Shown here piece after piece: positions 28,100 through 38,643 of a stretch of 64,000 nucleotides of DNA (the stretch's first letter is position 1; the number at the start of each line of letters is the position of its first letter). Both the position numbers and the translations under genes were made by a program. A model generated the notes under the pieces. That model made no database searches and had not been told where the DNA came from. It saw nothing but the letters and a program-made list of their open reading frames with translations. Source of the DNA: Fistulifera solaris (Eukaryota). The stretch lies in contig AP026162.1 in NCBI GenBank assembly GCA_030295235.1, positions 558,001-622,000 of the forward strand, written 5' to 3'.

Positions 28100-28869
28100 T
28101 GCATTCGGTGTATCCCAAGGGGGACTTAACTCAATGGTTGTTATACTACTATTAAGTCAATTGAGCTTTAGGATGGTGATGTACTCTGCGATGGCGATGA
28201 ATATTGAATGATGTTGTTGTTGATAAAGTGCGGGGTGCGGTGCGAAGGCCAAAAATCATGGGCAATCCCCTTGCATTTTTGAGCAAAAAATCACGGTTTA
28301 ATACAATAAGTCTATTAAGTACACTTCCAGGCTATATGAATCAAAAAAAGTAGTCTTAAGGTCAGAGCGGTATTTAAGTAGCGCGACATGTCGGAGCGTG
28401 TATCAAAAATGTGTCTCAGGATGCACGGACAGACTGGACCCTCTTTTCAGACTCGTGACCAAAATAAGAGACCGTGACTCGACTTCTGCTACTGTTTACT
28501 TGATATACGATTTCAGTATGACAGCTTTTGAATGTCATTCCTTTATAATAAATCATCCTTGCATCGTACTGCTACCAAGCATATAGCAAAATTACTTGTT
28601 TGTGACAGAAATGTTGTTCCACTCTGACCGTCTCTCGCGGCCGCATTTTTCCCACCACTCCTCCGGTTTTGTGAAGAGAGATGACTGCATCGCATCATCG
28701 TCGGCCTTTCTCGGTTCTCGTGAAGAGTAATCCAGCAAAAGAATAGACATCATTTCCACGTTTCACTACATAGACACTTTCTACTCTTCTTTTATCAGAA
28801 CAAAAAGTTGACGGTCGGCAGTAATCGAAGAGAGGCAGCGCAAGGCATTCGACATTCAGAGACGCTCCC

Positions 28870-31800
28870 ATGACTTCGTATGGCAGCATCCAGGGAAACA
28901 CGTCGCCGTCGAACACCGACCTTCATGAGACAACTCCCCTCGTGAATGGTAGAAACGACAGCAACAATGAGCACATATCGACAAAGTGTAGTTACTGGTC
29001 GAAACTTACCTTTCACTGGTTTACTCCAGTTCTGTATCGAGGAAACGAAAAACTCAAACTTGATCAAGACGATCTTGACCTCGTGCCTTTGTTAAATGAC
29101 TGCGAGACCGACTATGTAACGAACACCTTCGATATGTATTGGGGGCAAGAGCTGCAGAAGGACTCTCCGTGTTTGGTAACCGCATTGACACGGGCATTTG
29201 GGGCGGAATATTTAGAGGGTGCTGCCTTGAAACTCGTGCATGATCTCTGCTTATTTGTGGGGCCACAAGTTCTCCACAGCATGATTGTTTTTCTGAGAGA
29301 TCCCGATGCACCACTGATATGGGGTTTGTGGCTCATTTTCGCTGTGACGATAAGTCAGTTGGCCATGAGCATTTGCCTCCGGCACTACTTTTACAAGGTA
29401 AGTGATTTAAGACAGCCGCTAAATCTTGAATCAGTTCCAATTTGGCACAACTCACTGTTCCCTTCAAGTGCTACACAACTGGACTGCGAACTAGAACAGC
29501 AATTGTCATGGCAGTCTATCGAAAAGCTCTACTTTTAAGTCCGGAGGAAAGACAAAGTCGTAGCATCGGTGAGATCACTAATCTTGCTTCGATTGATGCA
29601 CAACGCTTACAAGGTACGAAAGGAACCTTGTTTTCAGATTGTTAAATTGCATGTTTCTCACCGACAATCATTGATCAAAAATAGACTTGACAACGTATTT
29701 GAATGCTGTTTGGTCTAGTCCCCTCCAGATTGGCCTCGCTCTTTTCTTTCTGTGGAGGCAACTGGGTCCGAGCTCGCTGGGAGGCGTATCCGTCATCATT
29801 ATTATGATCCCAGTAACAAAGTACATAGCGACTTGGATGGGCAATATGCAAGCAAGTCTGATGAAAGCAAAAGACGAAAGAGTGGAGCTAAACGCAGAAG
29901 TGTTGGGCGGAATGAAAGTTATCAAGTTTCAAGCTTGGGAAGAGTCGTTTCAAAAAAGAATACAAACGCTTCGTGAAGCAGAGTTAGCGCAACTGCTGCG
30001 ATACTTTTTGGGGACCTCATTTTCTCGCATGTTGTGGGTATTCACACCACTCTTGGTTGCTCTTGCAACCTTTTCTGCTTACGTTTGGAGTGGTCATAAA
30101 CTCGATGTGGCTTCAGCGCTGACTGCTTTATCTCTTTTCGATCTTCTTCGATTTCCACTATTTATGTTGCCGCAAAGTAAGTTACTTCGAAATTAGTTCT
30201 TGCTTCTTCGGTGTGCGTGTCTTCTCATATTCGGAATGACAGCCATCAATTCAATCATTGAAGCAGCAGTTTCAATTGATCGCCTTCGAAGCTTTTTCAT
30301 TAGCGAAGAGCATCATGCGGTAGGACCGGGAAATCTGACAGAAAACGGAATCAACGTTAATGGTGTTTCGGCTGTATATGGTTCGAAAAGCACAGAAGGA
30401 GGGACTACTGCTCGAGCAGAGCGAAAGGGCACACTGGAGAAGGATAGGGAAGTTGCTATTCTGAGAGCCTTACTTTTAGACGCTGAACAAGAAATCCAGA
30501 AACTGCAAGGTGAACAATCCGATTCGCGCCAAGAGCCAGTAATTGACCAGGCAAGCTCGTCGCTTTGTCTGCGAAGGGTAAATTTTAAAATTCACCAAGG
30601 AGAAGTTATCGCGATTGTGGGCTCAGTTGGTAGTGGGAAAAGTTCGCTGATTAATAGCATTCTCGGCGAATTACGAATACTGACAGGCAAAACTGAAGTT
30701 AAGGGAACCTTGGCGTATTTTTCTCAGACCCCTTTTATCATGAACGCATCCGTCCGCGATAACATATTGTTCGGTCATGTGAACGAGCCTGTCGACGAAA
30801 ATCTTTATCAGCGCGCGCTCGATTGCTGTGCTTTGCGGCATGATCTGTCTTTATTACCCGATGGTGATCAGACTGAAATAGGTGAAAGAGGTATTACATT
30901 GTCGGGTGGGCAGAAAGCGAGAGTTGCTCTGGCGCGAGCTGTGTATCATAGAGCCGATATCACACTCGTTGACGATGCTCTTTCGGCTGTTGATGCGCAC
31001 GTTGCGAAGCACTTGTTTGATCGAGCTATTCTTGACGAGTTGATGCAGCCTACTATCCCAGGTAGTATGCGCAGTGTCGTCTTGGTTACCAATGCTCTTC
31101 AATACTTGAATCATCCTAGAATCAACAAAATATACGTCATTGAAGACGGTCGGATTGTGGAGGAAGGTTCTTACAATTCATTATCAAACAACTCAGATTC
31201 AGTCTTCGCCCGAATTTTATCGGTAATAAAAGATAACAAAGTGTCGAAAGACCTGTCAGAAACTGAAGACGATTTGAATACGGAACCAAAAAAAACTCTA
31301 ACTTCCACTTTAAGCGATAACGGACATAATCTTACAGCAAAGGACGCAAAACCGTCTAAGCTGGTTTCCGAAGAGCTAAGAAAAACAGGGAAAATTTCTA
31401 CTGAGGCATATTTATCTTGGATACATGCATCAGGTGGCTTCATGATTGCCTTTTTCATTTTGGTTCTGTTCGCCGCGGGTGAGGGGGTGGGCTTTCTCTC
31501 GAATTGGTGGTTGACTTACTGGTCTCGACATGCAGACGAGGCAAGTCAGTTTAGTTTTCTCAGTACATACGCTATCATCAATCTATCTGCTGCTTTGGCA
31601 GGGGTTTTCCGCATGCTTTTTGTTGCTTTGGTCAGCCTCAAGGCCTCTCGTCATGTAAGATAATTCGTTTTCCTTTGTGCTGATTGCCATTTCCTTTCCA
31701 TTCTAATGTGGTCTCATTGCAGTTGTTTGATGGTCTGCTGAACGCGGTCCTCTTTGCGCCCATGTCATTCTTCGACACGACGCCTGTCGGGCGGTTGGTG

Positions 31801-33459
31801 AACCGATTTAGTAAAGGTACGTTGGAAACTGATTCACTAGCAGATGTATAAACTTTCAGAGAAGCCAGCACCTCATGATTCGTTTCACCAGATGTTTACA
31901 CCATTGACGAGCAATTGGTTCAAACACTCAGAATGTACTTGCAGACTCTTTTTTCGATCTTAAGTACATTTGTAGTCATATCAGGTGTAACTCCGACGTT
32001 TCTTGTCGGACTTGTCCCACTTTGTCTGTTTTATATATCAGAGCAGCGCTTTTTTTACGGTAAGTCTCGAAATACCTGTCCTTGCAAATTTGGCGTCCGC
32101 ATTTGTCTTATGCAATAAATTCTTGTAGCTTACGTACCGCGAGTTAAAACGACTTGACTCTGTTCTGCGATCGCCGATCTATGCGCTTTTGGGCGAAACA
32201 ATAGATGGAGTTGCATGTATCCGAGCTTTTTCAGCACAAAGATCACTGACAGATAGGCTCAAAGTTATGCTTAATGAACAGCAGCATGCATACTTTTTGA
32301 CATGCACAGCACAATCATGGCTGGCCGTTAGGTTGGAGCTAATCGGAACTTTGGTAATCACTTTCGCTACAACAAGTGCAGTCGTGGAGCATGCTCTGTT
32401 TGGCGCAGATGAGACTTTCGCTGGATTGGCAGGACTGGCAATCTCATACGCTTTATCGGTCACGCAATCACTGAATTGGAGTGTTCGTATGGCCAGTGAT
32501 CTCGAAGCTAATATGGTGGCCGTCGAGAGGGTTCAGGAATATTCCCAGATTCGTCATGAGGGGCTTCGCAATGCCGAGCTTGACGAAAAACTTACCCCAA
32601 CTTGGCCGACGCACGGCGAAATTGTCTTCAAAGGAGCAAAGCTGCGTTACCGTCCCAACCTTCCTTTAGTTCTCAAAGGCCTCGATTTACACATACCTTC
32701 AGGGTCTAAGATTGGTGTTGTTGGGCGCACAGGTTCGTTTCAATTTTCTCTTTGAAATTCCGTTTTATTATTAATTCGACTCGATTTCTCATCGGTTTAT
32801 GTTTGGCTTCATTAGGGGCTGGAAAGTCGACGCTTATGGTGGCGCTGATGAGAATAGTTGAATTGGATGAAGGAAGTATTTCGATTGATGGTGTTGACAT
32901 TCGACAGATTGGTCTAGGAAAACTTAGACGAAATGTTGCCGTTATACCTCAAGATCCAGTTCTGTTTAGCGGAACAATACGAAGCAACCTTGATCCATTT
33001 GACGAATTCAGCGATGAGCAGCTACACGCAGTTCTTGAAAGTGTTGGTCTGTACAAGAGAACCATGGAGGGATCAATGCACAGTTACTCATCGCTACCGT
33101 TGGCCCGGGTTGATTCCATCGATGACTCAGTAGCTGAAGGTGGTATTAACTATTCCGTTGGACAGCGGCAACTTGTAGTAATAGCCAGAGCACTTCTCCA
33201 GGGAGCGAAGATAGTCATCATCGATGAAGCTACGGCAGCGGTTGATGCAGAGACCGACGCTGCAATTCAAAGAGTCTTGAGAATGGAGTTTGCTAATGCT
33301 ACATGTCTAACTGTCGCTCACCGATTGAACACGATCATGGACAGCGATTTTATTCTAGTCATGGACGATGGTAAACTTGCCGAGTTTGACAAGCCCGATG
33401 CTCTTGTGCGAAAGGGTGGCTTGTTTAGAGATCTTGTCAAAGCTGCTTCTCACGATTAA
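28870..33459 (+). CDS. ABCC/MRP-type full ABC transporter, multi-exon
   Basis: TMD1; NBD1 ([32 protein letters not shown]); TMD2 ([15 protein letters not shown]); NBD2 ([31 protein letters not shown]); several GT-AG introns. Confidence 0.95.
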
Positions 33460-33696: not shown

Positions 33697-35553
33697 TTAG
33701 GCGCTTTCAGCTTCAGGGTTCTTCATCTCGGCCAACTGTTTCTCATACTTTTGACTTCGGCGGAATAAAGTTAGTGCAAAGATCAGAAGGATCACGCAAA
33801 GCAGACCCAGCCCAATGCTCAAACCAGGTGTGAGCGAGTTTTGACCTTTTGATTTAGCGTTAGGCAACTCTGGTTGAACAGGACAATTAATGAACATAGC
33901 CTTTTCGACATCATAGTCCCAGCGAGGTGTCAGCTCCACGTCGCAATATGGGGCATCCAATGGGAAAACATTGTCTACAGTGCGCTCAAGACCGCCCATC
34001 TCTGTTTCCAAAATTCGTGCTTTATTGATGGCATGAATGATAGTCTTCCGCACGGTTATATCATTGAGAGGAGTTTTCCCAGAGTTCAAAAGGAGCAGTA
34101 CATTTTGAACATCATCTGTGAAGAAGACCGACAAATTATTGGTTTCTTCGTTATTTTCGATCTCAATCAGATCTTGTGCACTCAAAACACCAGATCCCCA
34201 AACCACGTCCAATGATCCATCTAATAACGCTTTCTTTACCTGTTCTGCTGTGTCGTATCTCACAACAAGTAGCTCTTCGATTTGAGAAGCACCTCCCCAG
34301 TAATTATCATGTCGCGCAAATAGAACTTCATCATCAACAACATCACCATCGGCATTTGTGGAAGACGTTCGACTACGGAACATGAAGGGTCCCGTACCCG
34401 AAATATTCTTTATCCCCGCACAGATGATGGATGAATCATCGTTCTCGGGAGAAGTGACATTTCCCCATCCAGCATGACACGAGTTACCTGTCACTGGATC
34501 TTTATCAACAAATGCTGCAGGCGATAACATTCGAAGAGGCCGAATAAAAGAGAGCTCTTGAAGAAAAGGGTAGTACACTGACTTGGTAACTACCACAAAT
34601 GTGGCGGAATCTTCGCAGCTCCATTCCGATATTTGTTGCGGCAGTCCATACCAACCATGGTAATCGGCAGATAGAAGCGGATCCGCTAAAACGTGATCGA
34701 AATTGATCTTGGCTGCTTCACAATTCCAGGGTGTACCGTCGTGAAACGTGACCCCTGTTCGCAATGAAAACGTGTATTTCTGCCCCCCGTTTGAGTGTGG
34801 CTCGATTTTATACGATTGTGCCAAGGCGGGAAGAATCTGACCGTACTCTCCGTAACTCACAAGACCTTCGTAGACCCAGTTATTTGCGAAAAATTCGTTG
34901 GGACGGTAGGTGTGAGGATCAAGACGACCGACCGACTGAAATACTCCCGTTTGAGCTCCAGGTGAGATGCGCACTGTGGTGGATCCGGAGAGAACTTGCA
35001 ATCGATGCACGGGGTAGTCAAATTGCTGTAACCCGGCTTGGTAGCCCGTCAATCTGTTGTTTAAAACAGTCGGCACACGTTTACCCCACAACGGCAACAT
35101 GACAGCCTGTTGATGAAGAACATTGTGTATATCTTTCCACTTCGTTTCACGCTCCCGGTGGTCCGACTCCTGAAGTACGTCCTGGATCATGTCGAAAATC
35201 GCATCCCTCGATGCTGGTGGCTCCAAGTTGGCCATTGCATGATAATGTCCTTCATCGCCCGTCATCCATCCCGAAGCGAACGAATGGGGATCGTAGGGGG
35301 CGCCCCACGTTTCACTAAACGACAAATGGAAGTCACCCGTCTCGTGGGCCTTGTTGAAATCTTCTTTGGACAGAAATCGTGGAGTAACTGTAATGCCCAG
35401 TCGTTCTAAATCCATTCGAATGTCATCCTCGATTGAGACCAGAGAAACGTCCCCTTCTACCATGATGAAGTCGATCGTATGCTTCTTGCAATCATTCTGG
35501 ACCGTTTGTGCCAGCAACATGGTAGGTGCAAGAACCAGAAGCAACGCCAACAT
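33697..35553 (-). CDS. Membrane-anchored NikA/CntA-like (SBP family 5) metal-complex-binding protein, ZCRP-B-like, circularly permuted
   Basis: Signal peptide (MLALLLVLAPTMLLA; an upstream in-frame ATG lies at 35616). NikA motifs TWGAPYDPH, VGRLDPHTYRPN, VYEGLVSY, TFSLRTGVTFHDG, YYPFLQELSFIRP, GTGPF and NYWG. C-terminal TM helix plus short basic tail. Intronless. Confidence 0.9.
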   Translation of the reverse strand: MLALLLVLAPTMLLAQTVQNDCKKHTIDFIMVEGDVSLVSIEDDIRMDLERLGITVTPRFLSKEDFNKAHETGDFHLSFSETWGAPYDPHSFASGWMTGDEGHYHAMANLEPPASRDAIFDMIQDVLQESDHRERETKWKDIHNVLHQQAVMLPLWGKRVPTVLNNRLTGYQAGLQQFDYPVHRLQVLSGSTTVRISPGAQTGVFQSVGRLDPHTYRPNEFFANNWVYEGLVSYGEYGQILPALAQSYKIEPHSNGGQKYTFSLRTGVTFHDGTPWNCEAAKINFDHVLADPLLSADYHGWYGLPQQISEWSCEDSATFVVVTKSVYYPFLQELSFIRPLRMLSPAAFVDKDPVTGNSCHAGWGNVTSPENDDSSIICAGIKNISGTGPFMFRSRTSSTNADGDVVDDEVLFARHDNYWGGASQIEELLVVRYDTAEQVKKALLDGSLDVVWGSGVLSAQDLIEIENNEETNNLSVFFTDDVQNVLLLLNSGKTPLNDITVRKTIIHAINKARILETEMGGLERTVDNVFPLDAPYCDVELTPRWDYDVEKAMFINCPVQPELPNAKSKGQNSLTPGLSIGLGLLCVILLIFALTLFRRSQKYEKQLAEMKNPEAESA

Positions 35554-35616
35554 CTTAGACAGAAGATAAGATAATCGAATATTCGGATCTCCTCCAAGTA
35601 GAATTGTGCGAGGCAT

Positions 35617-36180
35617 ACCATCTACCGATTTCTAGAAAAAATTGTGAGACCAAGGCCAAACTTCAGCACAACATCGAGGCCTACATGCATTACAATTTAG
35701 CCTCGAATCAAGCTCGGTCGGCAAACTTCATGTCTCTATACTTTTGGCTCCATTTTGTTACGTTTTATTTTGCCTATTGCTGGGTTGAAAGGCCTTGGCA
35801 TTAAGAAGCCTCTTTGTTCAATCGTTGATGCTTTACGGCTTCAGCTATAATAATTGAATCGTTTCAACCCAGTTGTGAAATCAATCATTTGTGTCGAAGT
35901 AAAATAGAAAATGAGGTTTCGGCCTTGTTAAAGGCAATTTAGAGCCTATGAGCAGTAACCAGCGCTCACAGTCCCGTATTGGTCCGGCCCTAGAAATAGC
36001 CTAAATATGTGTCACTTTTTCGCACGCGACACGCGACGACAACGGCCTTCCCCCCACGAGGAGTCGTCGATCTTGGGCGAAGGAAGGCTACAATTGTTAA
36101 AAGTGGCTGTCGGCGGGAATATTCTATCTGCAAAAGAAAGACTCCGTAATGTTCTTTCCACATAATTTTGTGACTTGACC
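35617..36180. promoter_or_regulatory. Putative bidirectional promoter between the NikA-like gene and the ferric reductase
   Basis: ~560-bp gap between divergent ATGs, with clustered GGCC(TT) motifs. Confidence 0.55.
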
Positions 36181-38643
36181 ATGACACAAGTCGCAGGGAT
36201 TATCGTGGCTTTGCTTGGCAGTCTTGTATTTCAACTGCAGAAAAATTCGAGTAATATTCTGTACTTTTATGGAAACAGCTGGAGCTGCACCACATGGCAA
36301 GAATGGACATGGATCGCGCTCACAGGGCTACTTATGCTTATGCTTCAAATGAAACCAAACAGTCAGATCGACCCGCCGTCAGAACAAGCGAAGACCAAGC
36401 TCTTTCTATGCTTCTTGGCAATCAACTTCATATGGTTTTTTGTTGCCATCGCGGAATTTGATTACACGTTCTCGGTAGTAAAGGCAGTAGAGTTTCTTGG
36501 GGCGAAAGCTGCCTGGCCAGGCATGTGGAATTTAGCATTTGTGATTTTCCCCATCAAGCGCTCGTCTGAAATGTTGGCGATCTCACACAAAGATTTATTA
36601 TTCCTTCATATTTGGGCTGGACAAGCCATCTTCTTCTGGTTAGCCGTCCACACGGTGCTCTTATCCATCGCATACGCAGTAAATCTTGACTATTCACTTC
36701 GAAATTGGACAAAGGTAATGATCCCATCCGATAACTTGTATACAGAAGGCGTAGTGAATTTCATGGGGTGGCTTGGACTAGCCATGCTTCTACTTTTGTG
36801 GCTCACTTCTCGACCGTGGTTCCGCAAACATTGTTATGAGATGTTCTCCTTCCTGCATCTAGTGACAGCCGCGTCCTTCATTCTGTTCTCCAATCTTCAC
36901 GATTACAACACAATCCATTTTATTCAACCGGCATTTGCTGCGTGGATCGCTGAGCGACTAGTGCGGCGTATTTCCACCGTGAACGTAATGATCGAAAAAA
37001 CACCACCACCTACTACTGTTGAAGATGGGATCCTCGGTAATGGCGGTATCCTCGCTGTTTCGATTTGTGAAACAAGTGGGAGAAAAGATTTTCCTCCTTT
37101 GGTGCGTCTTACCATGACTTTACCACGATCCTGGAATGTTTGTCCTGGAACGGCAGCATTCCTGTATCTGAAATGTCCGAGCATTTCCAACTGGCAGCTA
37201 CATCCATTCTCGATTAGCACGATTGACGTCGAGAGCATGACGTTTTCTGTACATATCAAAGCTCTCGGTGATTGGACGAATCAGTTTGTTCGGCAATTAA
37301 ATCAGCTTGTCGTCAAAGCGGACTTGCCGCTCGACGATCATCAAACTGGTCGGGAGGAGGCAAGTGAAACAATTCAAAATGCCACGAACCAGTTTGGTCT
37401 TTGCATTGAAGGTCCCTATTGCTCAGATCTTGGTGCACAATTGGATTCCGATCAAAAGTGCTTATTCATAGCTGGAGGAGTGGGCCTCACCGGCTTGTCT
37501 GAAGTCTTATACCGCCGACACGGACGTGGACAAGCGACGCTACTGGTTTGGATCCTCCGCACTATCGAGGAAATGGACTTTCTGGCCAAAGACTTACTTG
37601 ATCGCCTACAACCACCAAGGGACACAACACAAATCATGGTGTATATCACGCGCCAAGACGAGCGTTACGAACGTCGTCGCCGGCAGACCGCGAAAGTGGA
37701 TCACACACCGTTGCTGCTGCCCGGCTATGTCAAGTCAATCGACAGGACTGCAGCGGCAAAGAATTCGATCTTGACGTTTCCTACCATTGTCGAAGAGACG
37801 TCCACAAATCCAGATCAAAAACCGATGTCACTTGTCAGCCTTCTCGGAGTCTCCCTCAGTTTCTTGCTTGCTCGGATGGCCTGCTGCAATAGGACCGTAC
37901 GTGATACCGAGACCGGTAGAATTCTCCACACCTGTTCCGCAGTAACTAGAGCCTCGACCAGTATGACCTGTTCCAATTCATGCCAAGATGATGGCTTTTC
38001 TTGCTGTACCACGCCTATCTGTTTCTACTGCTTCCGAGGGTTGCCCGTGCTCTTCATGTTCATCCTGGCTCCTTTGTTGCCTCTTCTGTTTGCGTGGGTC
38101 TACCCGTACTGTATTCAGGTCACGAAATGGGTGCGCAAAGCCATTCGACCTCATCACGTTGCACCAGGGTTCCGATCTTGTACGTTAATACCGCTTCGCA
38201 TGGCGGGTCGGTCGGCATCGGCAGTGGAGGATACCTCCGAAAATTCCGTAACATACGGTGATGCAAGGAACGATTCGTTGCGAGTGATAGACCATTTGTG
38301 TCAACGAAACGCGCCTGCCATCATGACCAATCTCAATCACACCACTGTTGAGTTTCGAAAACCAAAGTTGTCGCAAATTATTCAAGAGTTCGGTGCCTCC
38401 GTGGGCAGAAACGAGGATGAAGACTTTGCTTTCCGCGAAAATAGCCACGTCCGGAGAAACGCAGAGGAGGCCGCGGTTTTTGTTTGCGGATCCAAAGCTC
38501 TCGCTGAAAGTGTGTTGAAGGAGGTGGAAATCTACAATAGTAATGATACAAGCAATGACGAAAGAAGCACGTCATCTCATGGAGCTTCTCGATCGAACCG
38601 ACGTGTTACTTTGTCAGTATGGACGGCCACCGGGGCCTATTGA
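36181..38643 (+). CDS. Ferric reductase (FRE/FRO family) flavocytochrome
   Basis: Heme-ligating His pairs (FLHIWAG...AVHT; FLHLVT...NLHD), FAD motif HPFSIS, HIKALGDWT, EGPY, NADPH motif FIAGGVGLT and C-terminal VFVCGS. Intronless, ~820 aa. Confidence 0.93.
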   Translation: MTQVAGIIVALLGSLVFQLQKNSSNILYFYGNSWSCTTWQEWTWIALTGLLMLMLQMKPNSQIDPPSEQAKTKLFLCFLAINFIWFFVAIAEFDYTFSVVKAVEFLGAKAAWPGMWNLAFVIFPIKRSSEMLAISHKDLLFLHIWAGQAIFFWLAVHTVLLSIAYAVNLDYSLRNWTKVMIPSDNLYTEGVVNFMGWLGLAMLLLLWLTSRPWFRKHCYEMFSFLHLVTAASFILFSNLHDYNTIHFIQPAFAAWIAERLVRRISTVNVMIEKTPPPTTVEDGILGNGGILAVSICETSGRKDFPPLVRLTMTLPRSWNVCPGTAAFLYLKCPSISNWQLHPFSISTIDVESMTFSVHIKALGDWTNQFVRQLNQLVVKADLPLDDHQTGREEASETIQNATNQFGLCIEGPYCSDLGAQLDSDQKCLFIAGGVGLTGLSEVLYRRHGRGQATLLVWILRTIEEMDFLAKDLLDRLQPPRDTTQIMVYITRQDERYERRRRQTAKVDHTPLLLPGYVKSIDRTAAAKNSILTFPTIVEETSTNPDQKPMSLVSLLGVSLSFLLARMACCNRTVRDTETGRILHTCSAVTRASTSMTCSNSCQDDGFSCCTTPICFYCFRGLPVLFMFILAPLLPLLFAWVYPYCIQVTKWVRKAIRPHHVAPGFRSCTLIPLRMAGRSASAVEDTSENSVTYGDARNDSLRVIDHLCQRNAPAIMTNLNHTTVEFRKPKLSQIIQEFGASVGRNEDEDFAFRENSHVRRNAEEAAVFVCGSKALAESVLKEVEIYNSNDTSNDERSTSSHGASRSNRRVTLSVWTATGAY

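Follow-up and report, generated by a model that had tools for sequence, protein, structure and literature searches.

Does a NikA-like binding protein encoded head-to-head with a ferric reductase (FRE) in the diatom Fistulifera solaris work together with that reductase on metal-chelate complexes, or do the two genes share a promoter and act independently? The question is raised by a stretch of 64,000 nucleotides (hereafter the window; GenBank assembly GCA_030295235.1, contig AP026162.1, positions 558,001 to 622,000 of the forward strand), in which two long, divergent open reading frames (ORFs) encode a family-5 solute-binding protein and a transmembrane metalloreductase (Table 1). Two systems described in other work frame the answer. 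In Phaeodactylum tricornutum, the FhuD/DesE-like receptor FBP1 and the reductase FRE2 are encoded by divergent neighbours about 1.5 kb apart and carry out reduction-dependent siderophore uptake (PMC6876252). ZCRP-B, in turn, is described as a NikA-like, plasma-membrane protein that responds to Zn and Co and is proposed either to feed ZIP transporters or to be endocytosed (PMC9010474).

The analysis points to three answers, of unequal strength. On the best reading of the sequences, the two genes form a conserved divergent pair of raphid pennate diatoms. The binding protein is a circular permutant of bacterial NikA, and this order is common to its listed algal homologues. Finally, the pair may constitute a receptor-plus-reductase module parallel to FBP1/FRE2, with a ZCRP-B-family receptor and acting on a metal-chelate complex, a reading that is given an even chance. 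It is the best supported of those considered, because the divergent arrangement is conserved, sister reductases are paired with FBP1-like receptors, and the two receptor kinds occur naturally fused.

Conservation of the divergent pair

Both ORFs lie exactly where an earlier reading of the bare sequence (the first-pass annotation) had placed them. Each is unbroken and collinear with its homologues, so that comparison of the sequences gives no sign of introns, in line with the intronless genes described there. The outermost ATG codons are 564 bp apart, and the gap grows to 627 bp when the binding protein is started at M22 (35553), which is its probable start and yields 618 amino acids. This start is plausible because the 617/618-amino-acid models P0153 and P0001, as well as the signal peptide, begin there.

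The closest named relatives are F. solaris FisN_1Lh267 (binding protein) and FisN_1Lh268 (reductase), which have adjacent locus tags and accessions and constitute a homoeologue on a 609,189-nt contig, distinct from the 622,807-nt contig of the window. Three further same-contig pairs are suggested by equal longest-contig sizes of 20054, 81680 and 16300 nt, with reductases respectively 96.5%, 82% and 57% identical to that of the window and, in the 16300-nt case, a binding protein that is 81% identical. A metagenome scan with the reductase alignment gave 12 loci, which were then searched by tblastn with the binding protein, and the latter was found at two of them (L002 and L003). Being identical over 11,588 nt, these two count as one observation, and the verified distant case of the pair is thus a single lineage. 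In L003 the genes are again head-to-head, with 566 bp between the start codons; identity to the window proteins amounts to 35% for the reductase and 59% for the binding protein, and the other neighbours (leucine-rich-repeat proteins, an amino-acid transporter and a DEAD helicase) have no match among the neighbours in the window. As for the other loci, L001, L004, L005, L006 and L010 have less than 600 nt upstream of the reductase, L011 and L012 are weak partial matches, and L008 carries the same reductase as L007 on a contig that diverges within the region encoding the reductase N-terminus, so that it was not counted either way; L007 and L009 are described below. The pair is thus not confined to this genome; such confinement was among the conditions that the first-pass annotation had set against its own proposal.

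Adjacency could also be a historical accident, devoid of common regulation or function and kept by the relatedness of the sampled lineages. Most pairs do come from one genus-level group (the window, its homoeologue, and the 20054- and 81680-nt contigs), and just one clearly distant case (L002/L003) is verified by sequence. Nevertheless, L003 matches the window in orientation and gap at 35% reductase identity and with no other neighbour in common, and analogous pairs of FBP1-like and FRE genes occur independently. An accident of this kind appears quite improbable.

No motif common to the intergenic regions of the window and L003 was found. The former contains a tandem CACGCGA repeat, some 145 bp before the ATG of the reductase, for which no counterpart was seen in L003.

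Circular permutation of the binding protein

The binding protein matches SBP_bac_5 (PF00496) with an E-value of 3e-41 and 142 bits against a Pfam cut-off of 32.4, while the NCBIfam models nikA (TIGR02294, an equivalog) and CntA (NF047575) score 300.4 and 194.4 bits, below their respective cut-offs of 393 and 800. An AlphaFold2 (AF2) model built with 48 homologues reached a mean predicted local distance difference test score (pLDDT) of 86.9 and a predicted template modelling score of 0.79, being confident through both parts of the protein, and its best Foldseek matches were NikA structures (E 3.7e-21). The model contains an N-terminal helix at residues 13-36 and a C-terminal one at 595-631, in keeping with the signal-peptide-bearing, C-terminally anchored protein of NikA/CntA type that had been described from the letters alone.

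When compared by phmmer with PDB chains (1uiu), the protein aligns to Escherichia coli NikA in three out-of-order pieces. The segment equivalent to NikA 346-467 comes first, and it is followed by residues 228-385 and 406-576, which correspond to NikA 13-163 and 160-318. The junction between the former C-terminus and the former N-terminus is 51 residues long, close to the roughly 47 residues of NikA that are left unaligned (468-502 plus 1-12). The out-of-order alignment and the matching junction length indicate that the binding protein is a circular permutant, in which the last third of NikA has been placed first. The Foldseek alignment spans just 370-390 columns or so, a shortness attributable to the use of a sequential aligner on a permuted fold. 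The first-pass annotation had overlooked the permutation.

This order is not peculiar to the window. The 120 listed homologues are 47-100% identical to the query and cover 73-98% of it in one local alignment, so that the permuted order is common to all of them; the named ones come from Bacillariaceae sp., Skeletonema, Thalassiosira exigua, Nitzschia inconspicua, Symbiodinium and Chloropicon. In a scan of prokaryote genomes, by contrast with the window's order, the canonical order was found at all 62 loci (60 classed by script and two by their printed coordinates), the best identity being 36%, and none showed the permuted order. No mention of circular permutation in the NikA-like family was found in the literature searched, including the text of the ZCRP-B paper.

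The C-terminal anchor and its tail recur in most of the 48 aligned homologues. In most diatom homologues the tail has about 21 residues, begins with basic residues and ends in ...A-V/Q-x-A (residues 619-639, positions 33700-33762, in the window); such a conserved tail could be a sorting signal. As to the pocket, residues were counted by hand from the phmmer alignment and the columns were checked in the 48-sequence alignment. The equivalents of NikA Y22, H98, W100, R137, R140 and Y402 are invariant there, and that of W398 is present in 46 of the 48 sequences. In the window protein, Y237 corresponds to Y22, H320 and W322 to H98 and W100, and R359 and R362 to R137 and R140, while an ETWGxPYDP motif within residues 52-176 holds the equivalents of W398 and Y402. 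These positions belong to the chelator pocket of NikA. The protein is predicted to be a type-I membrane-tethered, outward-facing receptor that keeps those NikA pocket residues for a carboxylate-bearing chelator, with His416 and R97 (see below) as exceptions in the pocket.

The fold and the pocket residues named above are common to the window protein and bacterial NikA and CntA, from which it differs in being permuted, membrane-tethered, without a permease or ATPase, and below the NCBIfam cut-offs, as well as at the positions of His416 and R97. It also resembles ZCRP-B: as described in PMC9010474, ZCRP-B is also NikA-like at about 30% identity, outward-facing, single-pass and without a NikB/C partner, and both families occur in diatoms and dinoflagellates. 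The published account places one transmembrane (TM) helix near the N-terminus, whereas the window protein has a signal-peptide-like N-terminus and a C-terminal anchor. The window protein probably belongs to the ZCRP-B family, with orthology judged by the published description.

The reductase and its FBP1-paired relatives

The reductase is a complete two-haem, FAD- and NAD(P)H-dependent transmembrane metalloreductase of the plant/protist FRE type, as far as its sequence tells, and this bears out its earlier description as a complete FRE flavocytochrome. Ferric_reduct (49 bits), FAD_binding_8 (47.7 bits) and NAD_binding_6 (34.9 bits) all score above their Pfam cut-offs, and the whole ORF is conserved end to end in P0121 and P0124-P0127. 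The hallmarks of FRE proteins are four haem-ligating histidines placed in two helices, together with HPF(S/T), G-x-G-x-T-G and C-G motifs. In the 24-sequence alignment, the HPFS and GGVGLTG motifs are conserved and C769 and G770 are invariant; of the histidines, H226 and H240 never vary, while conservation of H143 and H157 reaches at least 90%. For this reductase and its F. solaris homoeologue, the database models (641 and 645 amino acids) start at M180, and they consequently omit 179 conserved residues (36181-36717), including the first haem pair, H143/H157.

The NAD(P)H domain is split by an insertion of about 200 residues. In the AF2 model (mean pLDDT 70.0), this insertion contains a hairpin made of a helix (546-567), three strands (568-574, 581-587 and 590-595) and a second helix (611-655), a block with pLDDT values of 65-92, whose Cys-rich loop is predicted by the model to face outward. 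Conserved residues include R565, C597, C608, C609, F618, R619 and P622; among the 24 sequences C609 never varies and conservation of C597 and C608 is at least 90%, and in a 10-sequence alignment C569, C585, C597, C608, C609 and C614 are all invariant. No counterpart of the hairpin was found in solved chains of the NADPH-oxidase family. The hairpin was considered as a novelty and rejected as such, since extra helices inside the NADPH domain have already been described for plant and stramenopile FREs (PMC3591440). The ppFRE proteins described there, such as Arabidopsis FRO2, resemble the window reductase in combining Ferric_reduct, FAD and NADPH domains with these helices; a possible difference is that in this diatom clade the loop between the helices is predicted to form a conserved Cys-rich beta cap.

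Table 1. Coordinates and supporting evidence for the features of the gene pair, its surroundings and related metagenome loci (window positions unless a locus is named; residue numbers refer to the 639- and 820-amino-acid ORFs).
Feature	Position	Strand	Evidence or remark
NikA-like (ZCRP-B-type) family-5 binding protein gene	33697..35616	-	639-amino-acid ORF; SBP_bac_5, nikA, CntA, Foldseek
Residues 52-176, equivalent to NikA 346-467, placed first	35089..35463	-	phmmer alignment to 1uiu
Junction, residues 177-227, former NikA C-terminus to former N-terminus	34936..35088	-	between aligned segments
Residues 228-576, equivalent to NikA 13-318	33889..34935	-	phmmer; invariant Y237, H320/W322, R359/R362
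Predicted C-terminal TM anchor (residues 595-618) and 21-residue cytosolic tail (619-639)	33700..33834	-	AF2 helix
Shared divergent intergenic region	35617..36180		564 bp; tandem CACGCGA x2 at 36023-36036
FRE/ppFRE-type NAD(P)H metalloreductase gene	36181..38643	+	820 amino acids; Pfam, full-length conservation, AF2
Haem-binding TM core, residues 100-265, H143/H157 and H226/H240	36478..36975	+	Ferric_reduct at 115-236
FAD domain and first half of NAD(P)H domain, residues 307-497	37099..37671	+	H341-P-F-S344, G432-G-V-G-L-T-G438
Predicted TM hairpin within NAD(P)H domain, residues 546-655, Cys-rich beta cap	37816..38145	+	AF2, conservation
Second half of NAD(P)H domain, residues 699-781, C769-G770	38275..38523	+	NAD_binding_6 profile positions 100-154
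ABCC/MRP-type ABC transporter, multi-exon	28825-33459	+	ABC_membrane and ABC_tran, each twice
FBP1-like/FRE pairs, metagenome	L007:3748-8364; L009:7738-12186	divergent	GC 39%

The link to siderophore uptake comes from two of the metagenome loci. In L007 and L009, an FRE gene is divergent from a Peripla_BP_2 (FhuD/FBP1-like) gene located about 0.5 kb upstream; the reductases are 26-28% identical to that of the window and have the same Cys-rich hairpin, and the L009 Peripla_BP_2 protein ends in a hydrophobic anchor. A careful maximum-likelihood tree was made of 27 reductases, among which P. tricornutum FRE2 was not represented. All 24 diatom-type rows form one clade (support 100/99), and the window reductase thus falls together with FBP1-paired ones, which is what would be expected of the parallel module proposed in the first-pass annotation. 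Within this clade, the L007 reductase groups with a Nitzschia protein (100/98), and its branch splits off as sister to the other 22 rows, which include L003 and the window reductase in its group of seven (100/100); that split has weak support (83/74), and long-branch warnings were raised for L007 and P0159.

The two receptor kinds are also joined directly. On a 503,337-nt contig, a single ORF of 981 amino acids (P0086) encodes an FBP1-like domain followed by a permuted NikA-like one, so that both receptor kinds occur fused in nature. Its residues 26-394 share 34-40% identity with the L009 protein and have PDB matches to periplasmic and Fe3+-hydroxamate binding proteins, and its residues 399-947 are 52.6% identical to the window protein. 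P0086 is without a C-terminal anchor and has a Cys/Asn-rich tail. No fusion of a binding protein to an FRE was found in a search for longer proteins, which returned three matches (1320, 1715 and, weakly, 1357 amino acids). The first of these, P0161, is an EukProt model with a NikA-like domain and about twice the single-domain length; P0162 (1715 amino acids), also an EukProt model, combines a NikA-like domain with copper type II monooxygenase, RhoGAP and SH3 domains and perhaps represents merged gene models.

Set beside FBP1/FRE2, the window pair is likewise divergent, with a tethered receptor of bacterial derivation, a ferric reductase of NADPH-oxidase type and a short intergenic region (PMC6876252), and its reductase belongs to the same diatom FRE clade as the FBP1-paired reductases of L007 and L009. 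The differences are that its receptor is of the family-5, cluster-C NikA type (PF00496) rather than the FhuD type (PF01497), that the gap is about 0.56-0.63 kb instead of about 1.5 kb, and that the published relatives of its receptor respond to Zn and Co and not to Fe. In 2019, the few further diatom genomes to be had at the time were reported to show no microsynteny of the FBP1/FRE2 kind (PMC6876252). No mention of a NikA-like/FRE pairing in diatoms was found in the literature searched, which agrees with the earlier supposition that it had gone undescribed. Neither 'ferric reductase' nor 'permut' occurs in the full text of the ZCRP-B paper, where the one instance of 'adjacent' concerns the localisation of ZCRP-A and not gene neighbourhood (PMC9010474), and two preprints that use ZCRP-B as a marker leave the reductase unmentioned.

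Possible mechanism, genomic setting and significance

If the two proteins act as a module, the tethered protein would capture a metal-organic ligand complex in its NikA-type pocket, either on the cell surface or inside an endocytic vesicle. The reductase, presumably transcribed along with it, would take electrons from NAD(P)H in the cytosol and carry them through the membrane, and the bound metal or complex would be reduced, made labile and handed to a separate transporter. The logic would be the same as that of FBP1/FRE2, with a cluster-C (NikA-type) receptor in place of the FhuD-type one. Among candidate metals, Co(III) complexes would rank first, since they match the Zn/Co response and would have to be reduced; next would come Fe(III)-carboxylate chelates, given the promiscuity of NikA evident from PDB titles and the link to FBP1; and Cu(II) would come third, because diatom FREs are reported to reduce Cu(II) and Fe(III) broadly and to act as cupric reductases (PMC9502191).

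Several observations weigh against such a module. ZCRP-B is reported to respond to Zn as well as Co (PMC9010474), and Zn is redox-inert. Under Fe limitation, no protein of Thalassiosira pseudonana was down-regulated more strongly than a 'NikA', which fell 2.87-fold (PMC3797725), and this argues against a role in iron. Within the pocket, the NikA metal ligand His416, whose importance is given in the title of PDB entry 3qim, is replaced by Glu in 43 of the 48 family members, and the position of NikA R97 is occupied by Tyr, Trp, Lys or Arg instead of being kept as Arg. Nor is the pairing universal: in N. inconspicua, the two NikA-like homologues lie on contigs of 3,510,965 and 4,610,928 nt, and the retrieved FRE-clade proteins on different ones, of 3,679,959 and 3,618,388 nt. 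The binding-protein family is also the wider of the two, with 518 matches, including dinoflagellates and a green alga, compared with 31 for the reductase. Finally, the binding-protein gene of the distant pair may be decaying: although intact elsewhere, it reads TAG in frame in place of a conserved Trp codon (W384 in the window protein; L003:8283-8285, also in L002). A young pseudogene, a strain allele and an assembly error are the alternatives for this TAG. The synteny that the first-pass annotation had put forward as a check thus stands for the homoeologue and L003 and, among the homologues retrieved, fails for N. inconspicua. Its proposal of a parallel module built on a different binding-protein fold is strengthened by the clade shared with FBP1-paired reductases and by the P0086 fusion, and weakened by the unpaired N. 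inconspicua contigs and the fall under Fe limitation.

Some of these observations suit independent action of the two proteins behind a bidirectional promoter, and perhaps a common regulator. The receptor would then concentrate free or weakly bound Zn2+ and Co2+ for ZIP transporters, and the FRE would be a general ferric/cupric reductase of the cell surface. The published ZCRP-B model does use ZIP transporters and has no redox step (PMC9010474), the broad activity of diatom FREs on Cu(II) and Fe(III) (PMC9502191) would be expected, and both the separate contigs in N. inconspicua and the much wider distribution of the binding-protein family would follow naturally. What independent action does not readily explain is that head-to-head order and spacing are kept at 35% reductase identity when all other neighbours have changed, that reductases of the same clade pair with a second kind of bacterial binding protein, and that both receptor kinds are fused in P0086. 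It is regarded as the main rival, possible though doubtful.

A further alternative is a dedicated iron system, in which the NikA-like protein would bind Fe(III) carboxylate or aminocarboxylate chelates, complementing the hydroxamate-binding FBP1, and the FRE would release Fe(II). The titles of PDB entries 1zlq, 3mvw, 4dcx and 5on9 describe NikA with the ethylenediaminetetraacetate complex Fe-EDTA and with related iron or metal-chelate complexes, the equivalent of the carboxylate-binding R137 (R359) is invariant in 48 of 48 sequences, and the FBP1-like fusion and FBP1-paired sister reductases tie the family to siderophore uptake. On the other side stand the fall of the T. pseudonana protein under Fe limitation and the reported Zn/Co response of ZCRP-B, together with its use as a marker of Zn stress. 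The iron-responsive motif of P. tricornutum, CACGTG(T/C)C (quoted in PMC11947080), is absent from the intergenic regions of the window, L003, L007 and L009; this is a weak test, and indeed an uninformative one, given that the motif is missing at the FBP1-type loci too. A system devoted to iron seems unlikely.

The surroundings of the pair are those of a normal nuclear region and not of a recent foreign insert, as judged from a flat G+C content (0.44-0.49 over the region) and from ordinary eukaryote genes among the other scanned ORFs of the window, such as those for eRF1, a PPR protein, a proteasome subunit, Isy1 and PIG-V. The Pfam scan covered 47 ORFs of at least 130-150 amino acids, with some overlapping opposite-strand ORFs left out. 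Permease and ATPase domains of the NikBCDE type, including NikB/C-type permeases, were absent from all 47, consistent with the earlier remark that the window holds no bacterial-type partner. The sole ABC gene among the scanned ORFs encodes an ABCC-type transporter of the eukaryote kind, which runs towards the binding-protein gene and ends 238 bp from the stop codon of the latter; this transporter was considered as a partner of the pair and rejected, as it does not adjoin the pair in L003. An FBP1-like gene was not found in the window, where tblastn gave only a 57-residue match (E 0.002), and scans of viral contigs with both protein alignments returned no matches. In one strong sequencing run, read coverage was as even across the intergenic region as across the genes, which makes this run look like genomic DNA; two small runs gave fragments only.

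The permutation sets the NikA-like proteins of algae clearly apart from bacterial NikA and could help to sort misassigned ZCRP-B in metaproteomes; in one metaproteomic study, all the contigs labelled 'ZCRP-B' were reported to have proved bacterial (preprint 10.1101/2023.11.05.565706). ZCRP-B is already a field marker of zinc stress, and a conserved reductase partner would give it a concrete candidate mechanism. A wider view, put forward tentatively and probably beyond what holds in full, is that diatoms carry interchangeable cassettes of a bacterial binding protein plus an FRE, and that ZCRP-B is the receptor of one of them, working by reduction, and hence release, of a metal held in strong organic complexes, with kinetically inert Co(III) as the most attractive candidate. 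If that is true, ZCRP-B would report that the cell can reach metal bound to ligands, and not that it captures free ions. If the coupling of receptor and reductase is real, receptor-plus-reductase uptake would extend beyond hydroxamate-bound iron to a second class of metal-chelate complexes, and it would bear on how diatoms gain access to the Co, Fe, Cu and Zn of seawater, large pools of which are strongly complexed.

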